From the IMG/VR virus record IMGVR_UViG_3300045988_142085, positions 32,001 through 96,000 of that record: DNA of 64,000 nt; one strand, given 5' to 3'. The position numbers and the translations under genes were made by a program. Positions 22,550-53,766 of the stretch are shown piece after piece (within the stretch, counting starts at the first letter, position 1; every line of letters begins with the position of its first letter). Below the pieces are notes generated by a model. That model did no database searches, was not told the DNA's origin, and worked only from the letters and a program-made list of their open reading frames with translations. The stretch is from a virus.

Positions 22550-24061
22550 CAAATGTTATTAACCTGTATATTTTTACATACAGCTCTGGAGGTTTTCCTC
22601 ATTTTCATCGATTAGTTAATTCTAATCCAGTTTAGCGTAACTTTTCACCTTAATTAAGATTCATAGGGTTGGGGCCTCTTGGTAGGATTATATCTTTTCA
22701 CCTACTACGCGTTGCGGCTGGCTTAACTTTGTTAAGCCTTCACCTCTGATTAGCATATTGTATATTAATACAACTTAGCCTTCCAGATTTTTTCCCCAAA
22801 GCTAGTCATCATCTTCTGAATCTGTTGATGACGACACGGCTATGCTATTTACAAATTGTCCTTTTTGATTTCTCATCCAAGGATGTTCTTTTTGATGGCA
22901 TTCTGTACATAATGAAAGACCATTTTTAAGATCATTAAATTCTATACTTTTAACAATGTCATCTAAATTATTATTATATTTTTGTACTATGCTATAAAGT
23001 TGTTCGATATGATGAACTATTATATCGGATCGTGATCCACATTTTTGACATGTATAATTGTCTCTTTTTAAACAAGAATTTTTCCAAATTTCATATTCTG
23101 TAGTGCTTCTTAAATAATGAGCAACTTCTGTATATGTTTCTTTTTCTTTATGTAAATATAATTTTTTATGCTCGTTACAACAAAAATGTTTTTTATGATT
23201 TTTAAATTTAGATTCTATTATTTCATATTTTTTATTACAATAATCACAAGAAACTTCAACACGTTTTTTTCGTGCCTCATGTGAACATTTACTAGAACAA
23301 TAGATATGTTTATTTTTTCCTTCAAAAAAATTTTTTAATGCGCCAATTGGCTTATTTATTTTTTCTCCGCAGAAATCACATTTTAATTCTTCTATTGTTT
23401 TTTTATTTTTTTCTTTTATATCTATTGCGTTATGATGCATACATTCTATTGAACAATATGATATATTTTGATTTCTTTTAGTTTGTTTTTTTACATAACT
23501 ATTTGGTAATTTAAATTTTTTTTGACAAAATTTACATGTAAACTCTGTAAAATTACCACGTATATCATTTTCTTTGTTGTAAATTTTGCAACATTCAGAA
23601 GAGCAGAAATAATGCTTTTTATTTTTTAATTTTTGCTGAACCTTAAATTCTTTTCCGCAACAATCACATTTTACATTTAATTGATTGCGCCCCCAATGTT
23701 TATCTTTACACTCTCGGGAACAAAATTTTATAGGTTGATTTTTTTTATTAGCATTTTTAATTTCTCGTTCACTTCTTTGAAACATATTACCACATTCAAG
23801 ACAAATATAATCATGATATACAATATTTTTATGCGCGTATTCATGCATACATTTCTTTGAACAAAATTGTGGTTCAAAATTTGGATTTTTTCTTTTTTGA
23901 AAATCAACTTCACATTTTCTTCTTTTAAAATCAGACATGCAGTTCTTGCATGCATAGTACAACCATATATTTTCTTTATTTTTCATAATTATCTCCTGTT
24001 AATATTCAGTATACATCTATATATTACAGGAGTTTCTTCAATTTGTAAATTTTAAAATTTA
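22550..24061 (-). mobile_element. group I-like intron (family A) carrying an HNH homing-endonuclease ORF, inserted after the Walker B region of the AAA ATPase gene
   Basis: Exon 1 ends GGC GGT directly before a TAA. The 3' 250 nt (22550-22800) is near-identical in architecture to the uvrD intron. HE ORF has its own AGGAG RBS 72 nt into the intron. Confidence 0.7.
22802..23986 (-). CDS. intron-encoded HNH endonuclease with N-terminal array of about 10 CxxC...CxxC zinc-ribbon modules
   Basis: C-terminal CQKCGSRSDIIVHHIEQL...SLCTECHQKEHPW (HNH). Repeated C-x2-C-x(12-20)-[CH]-x(2-4)-[CH] modules upstream. Confidence 0.7.
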   Translation of the reverse strand: MKNKENIWLYYACKNCMSDFKRRKCEVDFQKRKNPNFEPQFCSKKCMHEYAHKNIVYHDYICLECGNMFQRSEREIKNANKKNQPIKFCSRECKDKHWGRNQLNVKCDCCGKEFKVQQKLKNKKHYFCSSECCKIYNKENDIRGNFTEFTCKFCQKKFKLPNSYVKKQTKRNQNISYCSIECMHHNAIDIKEKNKKTIEELKCDFCGEKINKPIGALKNFFEGKNKHIYCSSKCSHEARKKRVEVSCDYCNKKYEIIESKFKNHKKHFCCNEHKKLYLHKEKETYTEVAHYLRSTTEYEIWKNSCLKRDNYTCQKCGSRSDIIVHHIEQLYSIVQKYNNNLDDIVKSIEFNDLKNGLSLCTECHQKEHPWMRNQKGQFVNSIAVSSSTDSEDDD

Positions 24062-25123
24062 ACCGCCGAGGACTTTTTCCGCTTCATCGATTAGGATAAC
24101 ACATTGTTTAAGTTCTCTTACTTGATTTAAGGCTCGTTCCATATTGCCTTCAGATGCGCCGACTAGACCTTGCATAATTTTACTTAAGTTAATATTTACT
24201 AATGGTACTTTTAACGTAGCTGCAATAATACTAGCTGCTACAGTTTTAGAACAACCAGGAACACCGAAAGCAATAAAGCCTTTAGGTTTCTTAATGCCGA
24301 GTTGTTTTGCTTCGTCTGTATAGAATTTAGGTAAAGTGGAAACATATTTTTTAAAAGCATGATAGCCACCCATGTCATTCAAAGACATTGTTGGATGAGA
24401 AATTTCTAACATACTTCCGTCGAAGTTTTCAGTTTTAAACTTATGAATATCGGCTACGCTTATATTACCAGATTTTGAACAATATTCTAAACATTGAAGC
24501 ATTTGAATATATGTTAAACCTAATAGTGCTTCGACACATTGTAATTTTTCGTCGCCAGTATGATACTTATTGAGATAAAGCTCGATTTCTTTAGCTGTCA
24601 AAGCATCTAAAGAAATACGATAAGCATAGTCAGCAAGCTCTTCAGGTGGAGCAAATGTTGCGACTACAAATACTGGAGCACCATTGCCTTTAAATGCCAA
24701 TACATCTAATAAAATTTTAGAATACATTGGATTTTTAAGGGCCATAGGTTCTACAAATAGATGAGGCGTATCTTTTTTATCTGGATTACCGACTTCTAAA
24801 AGATACTGATCATATTTATTTAAATCCGGTGTTACTTCACTTTTAATATCTTTAAGATAATTGAAGGAACACTGTTTATTATTTGCTACTAATTTTTTAA
24901 GATCGATAGATCCATAAGGATATCGTTGTGTACTAAGATATACTTTCTTAGTTTCAGAATTACCAAATGCAGCATCGAGAGAAAAATCTTCAAGATTTTG
25001 ACCTGCATCACTTAAAGAATTTAAAACGTAAGACATACCGCGTTCTAATTCTTCTGTTTGAATCCAAATTAATGGATTATATCCGCTTTTAAGACCAGAT
25101 TTAGATAACTTATTAAATTCCAT
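24062..25123 (-). CDS. AAA+ ATPase, exon 1 (Walker A GVPGCSKT, Walker B ILIDEAE)
   Basis: FGVPGCSKTVAASIIA...CVILIDEAEKVLGG. Confidence 0.7.
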
Positions 25124-25137
25124 ATTTTCCCTTCCTT

Positions 25138-25608
25138 TTAGCCTACGAATTGAACTTGTTCGTCTTCAGGTAATACTGTATTAATTTTTTCAATGAAATT
25201 GATTACATTAGCTGCTGTTTCAGATACATCGACTTTAGCAGCTCGTGTTGTAGAATCTTGAGGCCAAGATTCGATTTCTTTATACATAGCCTTAAAGTCT
25301 TTGTCACATAGCTCCCATACTTTTTCCATAAGATTACGAGCCAAGAATAAATTAATGAAATTTTGATATTCATTCATGTTTTCGAGTGCTACTTTTTTAA
25401 CGATAGCTTGTTTAATTAGTGTTTCAATTTCGTTATCCCAATCGAAATGATGCTCGACTTCGATATTTTCATCGTTGACAACACCAGTAATTTTAAGTAC
25501 AGCATCGTCTTTATCTATGGTTAATACAGAATTTAATTTAAATGCTTTTTCTTGCTGATCGAAATTAAAAGTCTTATTAAAATAAGTGTCTTTAATGATT
25601 ACTTCCAA
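25138..25608 (-). CDS. hypothetical protein
   Basis: 156-aa ORF. Confidence 0.5.
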   Translation of the reverse strand: MEVIIKDTYFNKTFNFDQQEKAFKLNSVLTIDKDDAVLKITGVVNDENIEVEHHFDWDNEIETLIKQAIVKKVALENMNEYQNFINLFLARNLMEKVWELCDKDFKAMYKEIESWPQDSTTRAAKVDVSETAANVINFIEKINTVLPEDEQVQFVG

Positions 25609-26204
25609 AACTCAACGCCTCCATCTTTTTTAATCCCCATATCGGAATATTGATTAATATTATTATATACTTTAATAGTTTTATTATCTAAACTATATTG
25701 ACTTAAGTCGACTACTTTTTGATTATTACTACCGATGAAACTACGCATTACATTCGTATGTGTATCGTCATAAATACGTTGATGTTCATCATATTGTCCA
25801 TCGACTAATACATCGATAGTATTAAATAATTCTTCATATTGCTCTGGATTTTCTTTTAACATATCTTCATATGTATGCCAACTAATCACAAGGATATGAT
25901 AATTATATTTTTTAAGTAGCTTACAAAGTTCGATTAAGCCTTCTAATTGATCTGTAGGTTCGCCGCCAACTATTGTTACGCTCTTAACGCTACACATGTC
26001 TTCTAGGCGATCTACGATAGATTGAATTGATACATGAGAACCTTGTTCTCGCTGCCATAGTTCATAATTAAAACAACCGCGACAAGGATCACCTTCTTCG
26101 GCTTTACGACAGCCAGCGAAGTATAGTTCACTCCTAAGATTATCTTGAACACTTGGGCCTGCAGTCCGAATGTTGATGCGATAATCGTATAAATTAATAT
26201 TCAT
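25599..26204 (-). CDS. nrdG: NrdG-like anaerobic ribonucleotide reductase activating protein (radical-SAM-related), atypical Cys spacing
   Basis: Aligns with T4 NrdG: GP..R..LF.AGC...C.GCFN..LW, VTIVGGEPTDQ, ILVISWHTYEDM, IDVLVDGQYDE, GSNNQ. Cluster motif here is C-x9-C-x2-C. Confidence 0.5.
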   Translation of the reverse strand: MNINLYDYRINIRTAGPSVQDNLRSELYFAGCRKAEEGDPCRGCFNYELWQREQGSHVSIQSIVDRLEDMCSVKSVTIVGGEPTDQLEGLIELCKLLKKYNYHILVISWHTYEDMLKENPEQYEELFNTIDVLVDGQYDEHQRIYDDTHTNVMRSFIGSNNQKVVDLSQYSLDNKTIKVYNNINQYSDMGIKKDGGVEFWK

Positions 26205-26206
26205 AC

Positions 26207-52991: not shown

Positions 52992-53221
52992 TTATATCTC
53001 TCTAATTTTAATTATACAAAGCCACTATTTTTATACTGCATTAAATTCTATAGCTCCAAAACCAAGAGAGCTTTGCAGATTTCTCATTACTTGTTTTAGC
53101 ACTATAATAATACAATTCTGCATCACAAATATTAATTGTTATGATTATTGCAGGATTTTAGTACGTTTTAATATTATAATAAACAATATAACTCTAAAAC
53201 TATTCGATATTCTGCTGTGTA

Positions 53222-53397
53222 GTCACCTTAATTTTAGTACTGTATCAAACTATACAGCTCTAAAACCTCAAATTTGCAAAATTAGAGCTATATTTAACAG
53301 TACTTTATAGAGTCTTCTAAGTTATCTTAGCAGACTTCTAAAGGGATAAAACTTAAGCCCTATACCGACTAATTAAAAATATGATCGGTTACAATTA
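53222..53397. repeat. about 175-bp repeat, copy A (IS605-like left end; hairpin TATACAGCTCTAAAAC-N11-AAAATTAGAGCTATAT)
   Basis: About 75% identical to 55768-55927 over the whole length. Also shares AATTGTAAC terminus and GGG(A/G)(T/C)AAAACTTAA(G/A)CCCTATAC motif. Confidence 0.6.
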
Positions 53398-53435
53398 AAA
53401 AAAAGAGCGACCATCTTAGCTACTGGTGATCGCTC
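53395..53435 (-). terminator. rho-independent terminator (GAGCGA-CCA...TGG-TGA-TCGCTC hairpin + T8)
   Basis: On the minus strand, directly after the putative 3' exon remnant of gene 53765-54130 and before the IS left end. Confidence 0.5.
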
Positions 53436-53467
53436 TTAATGTCCGGCAACATTTCGCTGACGGCTCT

Positions 53468-53766
53468 CCTAAGATTAACGCTATGTCTAGGCTATCTCAT
53501 GCCTTGCATCCTATATCTTAGGCCTAGTATATTATACTAGGATTAATTAATCCATATCTTTCGATAGGGCCGCCCACTACTTCTTCCATATGAAAGTTGC
53601 GGTCTTTTAGGATATTATATTCTCTAACGAGTTTCAATCCATTGGGCACTTGACTACATTATTACATATAGCCTTCAGTGAACGTTGGCATATCTTACGA
53701 CTTAGCTTTCGTTCCAATACCGCAATTATTCGCAAGACTAAGCTTGCTGCAATTTATTTAAAAGCT
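53468..53766 (-). mobile_element. group I-like intron (family A, ORF-less, about 299 nt) inserted inside the stop codon of gene 53765-54130
   Basis: 5' end AGCUUUUAAAUAAAUUGCAGC; core GAAAGCUAAG...AUAUGCCAAC...GAAGGCUA...UAGUCAAGUGCCCAAUGGAUUGAAAC; 3' end ...AGCGUUAAUCUUAG (omega G). All parallel the uvrD and clpX introns. Splicing would convert UAC U|AG into UAC U|GA. Confidence 0.55.

Follow-up and report, generated by a model that had tools for sequence, protein, structure and literature searches.

Ten group I introns and one intron-like RNA of two structural lineages in the genome of an uncultured jumbo phage

Our analysis of a 64,000-nucleotide (nt) stretch of viral DNA (positions 32,001 to 96,000 of IMG/VR record IMGVR_UViG_3300045988_142085; hereafter the window) shows that it carries ten group I introns, predicted to be self-splicing, in six genes, together with one intron-like RNA, and that these eleven elements belong to two structural lineages. 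The interrupted genes encode an SNF2 helicase, UvrD, an AAA+ ATPase, RecA (two introns), GyrB (three) and ClpX (two). A preliminary description of the window had named eleven introns in two sequence families, A and B, and had attributed them to recent spread within this genome. Each of the eleven is present on the minus strand, ten as gene-interrupting introns and one as an intron-like element. The gene names given to them were also correct, as were the HNH open reading frame (ORF) assigned to the AAA+ ATPase intron (a match to phrog_1271, an HNH endonuclease family, at E=1e-20) and the LAGLIDADG ORF assigned to the second clpX intron (matches to Pfam LAGLIDADG_3 and to phrog_4645, E=2e-49). 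Two introns named in the set fall outside the span assigned to it, 22550-53766: that of uvrD (20349-20692) and that of the helicase gene (2759-3064). At a probability of roughly 85%, we consider the best overall explanation to be that two old group I lineages reside here, whose members would self-splice and move by homing between genomes, with no recent copying within the genome. From the sequences we infer both self-splicing and homing driven by the endonucleases. The elements are listed below, with splice sites marked by slashes and with scores from the Rfam model RF00028 or from R1, our own covariance model for family A.

2759-3064, minus strand: intron of the SNF2-type helicase gene (family B); junction GAGGGU/...AAUG/AUGAAU; RF00028 66.2 bits
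20349-20692, minus strand: uvrD intron (family A) in the Walker A motif; junction UCUGGU/...UCUG/AAAACU; R1 116.6 bits
22550-24061, minus strand: intron of the AAA+ ATPase gene (family A) with an HNH ORF at 22802-23986; R1 92.4 bits
29765-30134, minus strand: recA-2 intron (family B); junction UCGCCU/...ACGG/CAAAAA; RF00028 44.7 bits, E=3.8e-8
30439-30652, minus strand: recA-1 intron (family B) in the Walker A motif; junction UCGGGU/...AAGG/AAAACU; RF00028 64.8 bits; empty allele in relative L126 agrees
35798-36099, minus strand: gyrB-3 intron (family B outlier without P7.1 and P7.2); junction GCUGAU/...GUCG/GACGAC; RF00028 23.5 bits, in a targeted search only
36316-36624, minus strand: gyrB-2 intron (family B) in the Toprim EGDSAGG motif; junction GAGGGU/...UUAA/GAUUCU; RF00028 24.3 bits
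37504-37747, minus strand: gyrB-1 intron (family B); junction AACGGU/...UUUG/GUUGGG; RF00028 94.2 bits; empty allele in relative L125 agrees
40729-41967, minus strand: clpX-2 intron (family A) with a LAGLIDADG ORF at 40961-41914; R1 72.4 bits; empty allele in relative L125 agrees
42053-42350, minus strand: clpX-1 intron (family A) in the Walker A motif; junction UGCGGU/...ACUG/AAAACA; R1 116 bits; empty allele in relative L127 agrees
53545-53751, minus strand: 'stop' element, a family-A-type core RNA (P2-P9) with no P1; R1 72.9 bits

Intron coordinates were derived from gaps between minus-strand ORFs, from flanking domain fragments and from the rule that introns follow an exon U and end in G. 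The junctions were then checked by restored frames and domains, by PDB alignments and by intron-less alleles in close relatives. With the assigned junctions, every gene regains an unbroken reading frame and its conserved domain becomes contiguous. The spliced products are open, each with a single contiguous domain match. Once the helicase intron is spliced, Helicase_C is matched over positions 2-109 of 110 at 67.8 bits (45.1 before); the AAA domain is matched over 4-129 of 131 positions (81.9 bits), and AAA_2 in spliced ClpX over 3-166 of 166. The UvrD N-terminus runs across its junction in a product of 643 amino acids with GAGSGKT restored. PDB alignments gave no gaps between GyrB and solved gyrases at any of the three intron junctions, and RecA aligned to RecA structures with two residues added at the recA-2 junction. 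For seven introns an uninterrupted allele in a close relative agrees with the predicted junction; that of gyrB-3 is fixed by the empty allele of relative L130 together with the GyrB alignment. An exon U precedes all ten introns, nine end in G, and eight follow GGU, which is in each case a glycine codon inside a conserved motif. We also observed that the identical Walker A sequence GGU/AAAAC hosts three introns from the two lineages, in uvrD (20693/20348), clpX (42351/42052) and recA (30653/30438).

The separation into two lineages was demonstrated with covariance models. R1 was built from 40 family-A-like sequences, all of them from contigs outside the window. With filters off it gave exactly five matches in the window (72-117 bits, E from 1e-14 to 1e-24), namely uvrD, clpX-1, the AAA+ ATPase intron with its HNH ORF, the 'stop' element and clpX-2 with its LAGLIDADG ORF; the next best hit, on gyrB-1, scored 13.7 bits. 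RF00028 matched the six family B introns (94.2, 66.2, 64.8, 44.7, 24.3 and 23.5 bits), and BLAST among the eleven elements found no pair joining A to B. Two distinct group I-type structural lineages thus co-reside, R1 matching only A and RF00028 only B, and both membership lists proposed earlier are correct, that of family A having been recovered in full by an independent model. The sequence blocks said to define family A fared less evenly. They are collinear in all five members and form covarying helices, so the check that had been proposed for them, on collinearity and conserved helices, left the family standing. One block, GGAAGGCTAAG, is exact in uvrD, AAA and clpX-1 and gives five matches when one mismatch is allowed (0.56 expected by chance), but another, GCGCAACGCGTAGRGATTGAACC, is exact in uvrD alone, with three mismatches in the clpX-2 copy. 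The supposed UAAAA..UUGCNG start corresponds to the internal guide of the two ORF-less introns, but in both ORF-bearing introns the guide comes after the ORF. A match to GGAAGGCCAAG at 5974 was considered as a further family A copy and rejected; it has no R1 match and is a chance match inside the RNA ligase/kinase ORF.

In the ORF-less family A introns, the guide UUGCCG lies 14-24 nt into the intron and pairs with the exon end ..GGU, placing a guide G opposite the splice-site U. This pairing of exon U with guide G can be drawn for uvrD (UGGU with GCCG), clpX-1 (GCGGU with GCCGU), AAA (GCGGU with GCCGU) and clpX-2 (GGGGU with GCCCU). Both endonuclease ORFs sit in the P1 loop. The end of the HNH ORF overlaps the guide GCCG (22837-22840) and P2 of the AAA intron, and in clpX-2 the guide GCCCU (40992-40996) and P2 likewise overlap the end of the LAGLIDADG ORF. 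A terminal G is present in all four gene-interrupting members (..UCUG, ..UUUG, ..ACUG and ..AUUG), whose junctions are fixed by frame and by empty alleles. The family A architecture comprises P1, P2, P3, P4, P5, P6/P6a, P7, one extended hairpin P7.1/P7.1a, P3′, P8, P7′ and P9, and it has the group I topology, with a P3/P7 pseudoknot, P4-P6 nested in P3, and P8 between P3′ and P7′. Covariation was assessed in 56 sequences, made up of the five window copies and 51 from viral contigs and four phage records. Across 39 pairs, including those of the P3/P7 pseudoknot, 91.3% of cells are paired, compared with 32-40% when partners are slid; 32 of the 39 pairs show compensatory change, and none of 500 shuffles reached the observed values. 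P7 also covaries within the window (GCGUA with UACGC, GCAUA with UAUGC, GCCCA with UGGGC). The J6/7-P7 segment CAAC-GCAUA and the J8/7 segment AAAAGAU resemble the canonical R and S elements (CAAC-GACUA and AAGAU). From its predicted fold we place family A among the true group I lineages, with an IA-like build that RF00028 does not cover.

Family B consists of six canonical introns of IA type and RF00028 type that form at least three sub-lineages. It is not the single sequence family that had been described, as BLAST links few of its pairs and two of the blocks attributed to the whole family, TTGCTGGRAAGCCC and CGACTATCC..GGAGTA, are found in recA-1 and gyrB-1 only; GATATAGTC is present in four members. 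The only BLAST links are gyrB-1 with recA-2 (58 nt), gyrB-2 with the helicase intron (60% over 219 nt) and gyrB-3 with recA-1 (84% over 50 nt), the last being the tail that had been called near-identical over 60 nt. That tail is a P7′-P9 module that more than 200 phage records contain at 80-95% identity, among them those of Staphylococcus, Listeria, Enterococcus and Bacillus phages. Relative to the RF00028 gathering score of 50 bits, gyrB-1, the helicase intron and recA-1 score above and recA-2, gyrB-2 and gyrB-3 below, with low E-values. Both the exon U:guide G pairing and the terminal G are present in four of the six (not in gyrB-2 or recA-2), P1 being formed, for example, by AGAGGGU with GCCCUCU in the helicase intron and by AACGGU with GCCGUU in gyrB-1. 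Between P7 and P3′, recA-1 has both P7.1 and P7.2, gyrB-1 has one hairpin and gyrB-3 has none. Michel and Westhof, in 1990, reportedly marked subgroup IA2 by extra hairpins P7.1 and P7.2 at this position. The same two hairpins are given for IA2 in PMC4227781. Classical IA2 introns of phages include those in T4 td, nrdB and nrdD, Twort orf142, the SPO1 DNA polymerase gene and the Bastillevirinae (PMC11878797, PMC3984707). Like these, family B has canonical P, Q, R and S core blocks in the RF00028 alignments, and the introns lie in conserved motifs of DNA-metabolism genes, are distributed sporadically among relatives and in some cases contain HNH or LAGLIDADG ORFs. The window differs in being much denser, with ten introns over about 40 kb and three in gyrB, in the absence of P7.1 and P7.2 from gyrB-3, and in the absence of a terminal G from gyrB-2.

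Based on these features, splicing would begin when the internal guide, usually GCCN, pairs with the last bases of the 5′ exon, so that the U before the splice site is paired with a guide G. Free guanosine would attack the 5′ splice site, and the freed exon end would then attack after the terminal intron G, rejoining the exons. At the DNA level, the introns would move by homing between co-infecting relatives, two of them bringing their own predicted endonucleases (HNH and LAGLIDADG) in the P1 loop.

Several findings weigh against this reading. RF00028 gave no match to family A at E<=10, either in the whole window or in a targeted 381-nt search, and it was likewise silent on the family A relatives in phages AR9, phiR1-37 and BpSp. 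Covariation of P7 could not be read in the 56-sequence set, where the search pattern used for collecting had fixed the 5′ strand of P7. The last base of gyrB-2 is A rather than G at the only in-frame junction, and the splice-site U of recA-2 (position -1) stands opposite an A in the only guide that can be drawn. Finally, the 'stop' element lacks P1 and does not interrupt a gene.

The silence of RF00028 is what would be expected if family A were some other intervening or structured RNA that interrupts genes, and not a group I intron. We regard this as extremely unlikely, given the exon U:guide G pairing and terminal G in all four gene-interrupting members, the covariation behind the order P3-[P4-P6]-P7-[P7.1]-P3′-P8-P7′, and J6/7-P7 and J8/7 segments close to the canonical ones. 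Further, family A has no group II hallmarks and no Rfam group II match, and the weak R1 match on gyrB-1 covers the same core region as in family A. The RF00028 seed alignment is without several group I subgroups (PMC11878797). The miss therefore reflects how far the model reaches, and a match to RF00028 does not define the intron class; RF00028 passes over this lineage because its core sequence has diverged enough.

For gyrB-2, the junction is fixed by the empty allele of relative L126 and by the gap-free GyrB alignment across EGDSAGG. Splice sites shifted to give a canonical terminal G, or the use of an upstream G, were tried and rejected, since they break the frame or lose an EGDSAGG residue. 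Five relatives have the same end, ..AA/GAUUCU, with a P10 of six base pairs in canonical register that covaries with that of the window; four others have a different 3′ end, ..UUUG/GACAGU, with a normal terminal G. For recA-2, the spliced product is 6 nt longer than the empty allele. The other junctions tried, with coordinates that were set wrongly, gave stop codons, and the option that follows U and ends in G, adding two residues, was retained.

If the preliminary description were right about recent spread, each family would have been duplicated or transposed not long ago within this genome, with reverse splicing or ectopic homing into similar GGU/AAAAC sites as the route. Occupation of that Walker A site in three genes, by uvrD and clpX-1 of family A and recA-1 of family B, is in keeping with this proposal, as is the 76% identity over 170 nt of the closest co-resident pair, uvrD and clpX-1. 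Yet the co-resident family A copies are no closer to each other than random pairs from other contigs, being 42-69% identical over the aligned core (mean 56.7%, compared with 61.4% for the random pairs). For four of the five copies the nearest match is on another contig and not in the window (the 'stop' element shows a difference of a single percentage point), so the comparison already points against clustering. Between related phages, the intron of a given site is 85-98% identical, which also argues against copying within the genome. The GCCN guide, and so the ..GGU target, is common to the whole family A lineage, as seen in the left columns of the alignment, and a shared type of site therefore does not require a recent event. 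In family B, the tail shared by recA-1 and gyrB-3 is common to those more than 200 phage records. Taken together, we judge recent copying within the genome to be very unlikely and conclude that the five family A copies are old, independently acquired members of a widespread lineage, not recent copies of each other.

Exchange between genomes fits the distribution of the introns among relatives. Each of the nine introns checked (all but that of the helicase gene) is present in some close relatives with 96-99% GyrB identity and absent from others; the counts of relatives with and without the intron are 8 and 5 for recA-1, 6 and 7 for recA-2, 7 and 7 for gyrB-3, 5 and 9 for clpX-1, and 5 and 10 for uvrD. 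ORF-bearing and ORF-less forms occur at the same site among relatives for the AAA, clpX-2 and gyrB-2 introns, and at the AAA and clpX-2 sites a relative may have an ORF-bearing, an ORF-less or an intron-free version. This presence and absence, together with the empty alleles, points to homing between genomes. The exon flanks of intron-bearing relatives tend to be more similar to those of the window, and in place of the GGU of occupied sites the empty ones often have GGA or GGC, a pattern that fits co-conversion during homing or selection for a splice-competent context. This phage group amounts to a natural homing experiment, in which about 15 near-identical genomes hold different subsets of the same ten introns, and in which ORF-bearing, ORF-less and empty alleles are found at single sites.

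An extra family A copy with 76-79% identity to clpX-1 is found in some relatives just before gyrB exon 2 (L126 8773-9007, L130 3480-3716, L132 8854-9089 and L133 9714-9949); the window has none there. A further family A copy may thus lie in or next to gyrB in some genomes.

Beyond this group, BLAST found family A in gyrA of AR9 and PBS1, in phiR1-37 and BpSp, and in Staphylococcus, Clostridium, Aeromonas and other phages. Scans for its core pattern gave at least 120 contigs of viruses and at least 120 from bacterial genomes, many of them from Bacillaceae. The gyrA introns of AR9 and PBS1, with homologues in phiR1-37 and BpSp, belong to the same lineage: they are 69-70% identical to the uvrD intron over 85% of its length, have the same core blocks as family A, follow a 5′ exon that ends in GGU, and terminate in G. 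They differ from the introns of the window in their host gene, gyrA, and in residing in unrelated phages. The AR9 annotation joins the gyrA coding sequence from three pieces and spans a family A copy in doing so. In the phiR1-37 record (L002, g327-g329), gyrA is annotated as separate ORFs around a family A intron with the intron ORF g328 between them, and in that of BpSp (L003, gp105-gp106) as separate ORFs on either side of one; in both records gyrA is mis-annotated as fragments. A large group I lineage, widespread in phages and bacteria, is thus invisible to the standard Rfam model and leaves split genes annotated as fragments. R1 separates family A cleanly from background and could serve to repair such annotations. 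As a practical by-product, this work cleanly defines a widespread lineage to which the standard model is blind.

The presence of several group I intron clades within single phage genomes has already been reported (PMC11878797). Co-residence of two lineages, being documented in other phages, would not surprise a specialist, and the window holds an unusually dense but essentially known load of mobile introns rather than a recent burst within one genome.

The eleventh element had been described as an intron at a stop codon. It lies in the 3′ untranslated region of the ORF at 53765-54133, starting 13 nt past the stop codon and not at it, and no P1 or 5′ splice-site helix can be drawn. Pairings with the end of the upstream ORF were tried in five variants that have P2, and none was consistent. 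Relatives with an empty site read ...UAG CUUUUAAAUAAAU/AAUCCUAG..., so that the inserted DNA is 53751-53545. The window copy of the element has P2 and, from P3 to P9, an entire core of family A type; in more distant relatives it begins directly at P3, without guide and P2. We suggest, from its predicted structure and distribution, that it is a structurally maintained, insertion-polymorphic relative of family A and not a demonstrable intron.

It is possible, though we do not favor it, that the 'stop' element is a decaying family A remnant that has lost P1, has no function and is kept by linkage. The missing P1, the further loss of P2 in some variants, its position in non-coding DNA and its absence from many relatives would all agree with decay. 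Against this, compensatory changes keep P3, P4, P7, P7.1 and P9 paired across ten relatives (95.7% of cells pair, and eight pairs have changed on both sides), and over 223 nt the element has about 89% identity with copies in phages whose flanking ORF shows only 74% protein identity. A second and less probable view, which we consider unlikely, is that it is a selected, group I-derived RNA of the 3′ untranslated region with a non-splicing job, and that gyrB-2 ligates its exons without a terminal G by means of its P10 of six base pairs. The GIR1 lariat-capping ribozyme is a group I-derived RNA that lacks P1 and cleaves instead of splicing. By analogy, a candidate job for the 'stop' element would be self-cleavage at the 3′ end for transcript processing. 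Like GIR1, the element is a group I-type core without P1 in non-coding RNA upstream of other transcribed sequence. Unlike GIR1, it keeps the ordinary family A arrangement of P3 and P7, and the likeness is an analogy for a possible function only; the Rfam GIR1 model found no match anywhere in the window.

A conserved, hairpin-rich segment of about 108 nt (53437-53544, minus strand) lies between the 'stop' element and a terminator. It is kept in relatives with or without the 'stop' element or tnpB, shows compensatory change in 6 of 18 predicted pairs, and has no Rfam match.

The window comes from an uncultured jumbo phage, and all of its genes lie on the minus strand. Pfam searches identified a replication and repair module comprising primase, the SNF2 helicase, an RNA ligase/kinase, UvrD, the AAA+ ATPase, a Rad52-like protein, UDG, RecA, GyrA, SSB, DHFR, ThyA and GyrB, as well as ClpX, ClpP and a TnpB-family gene. 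Megablast of the window returned short intron pieces only and no close cultured phage, and the top GyrB match in a cultured phage is 37% identical. In IMG/VR, about 15 contigs of up to 232 kb have a GyrB exon 96-99% identical to that of the window. Based upon these observations, the window belongs to a group of uncultured jumbo phages. Gemella was considered as a host and rejected, as the 208-kb Gemella-binned contig has family A introns but is only a distant relative.

The TnpB-family ORF (51780-52991) matches NCBIfam guided_TnpB (160 bits), Pfam OrfB_IS605 and a Cas12f1-like TNB domain. In an IStron, a group I intron is joined to an insertion sequence of the IS200/IS605 or IS607 type that includes tnpB (PMC4227781); the insertion sequence or tnpB lies within the intron, whose 3′ splice site is at the right end of the insertion sequence. 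The 'stop' element and TnpB gene resemble an IStron in that the group I-type core at 53545-53751 lies upstream of the TnpB gene on the same strand. This reading was rejected for three reasons. An intrinsic-terminator-like hairpin with a T run (53397-53437) and about 400 nt separate the core from tnpB; there is no right end, since the next ORF begins 4 nt after the tnpB stop and leaves no room for a 3′ splice site or the right end of an insertion sequence; and among relatives the presence of the core is independent of that of tnpB. No tnpA was seen at the TnpB locus, and there is no room for a 3′ guide-RNA region. Directly upstream of the TnpB ORF (52992-53300, minus strand) is a mini-array resembling clustered regularly interspaced short palindromic repeats (CRISPR), with three to four degenerate repeats of 35-36 nt, for example GTTTTAGAGCTGTATAGTTTGATACAGTACTAAAAT. 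From its sequence, the mini-array with TnpB could be a phage-carried intermediate between TnpB and Cas12. Each repeat forms an internal hairpin, and one adjacent pair is 66 nt apart from start to start, with a spacer of about 30 nt. Relatives have similar repeats with different intervening sequences.

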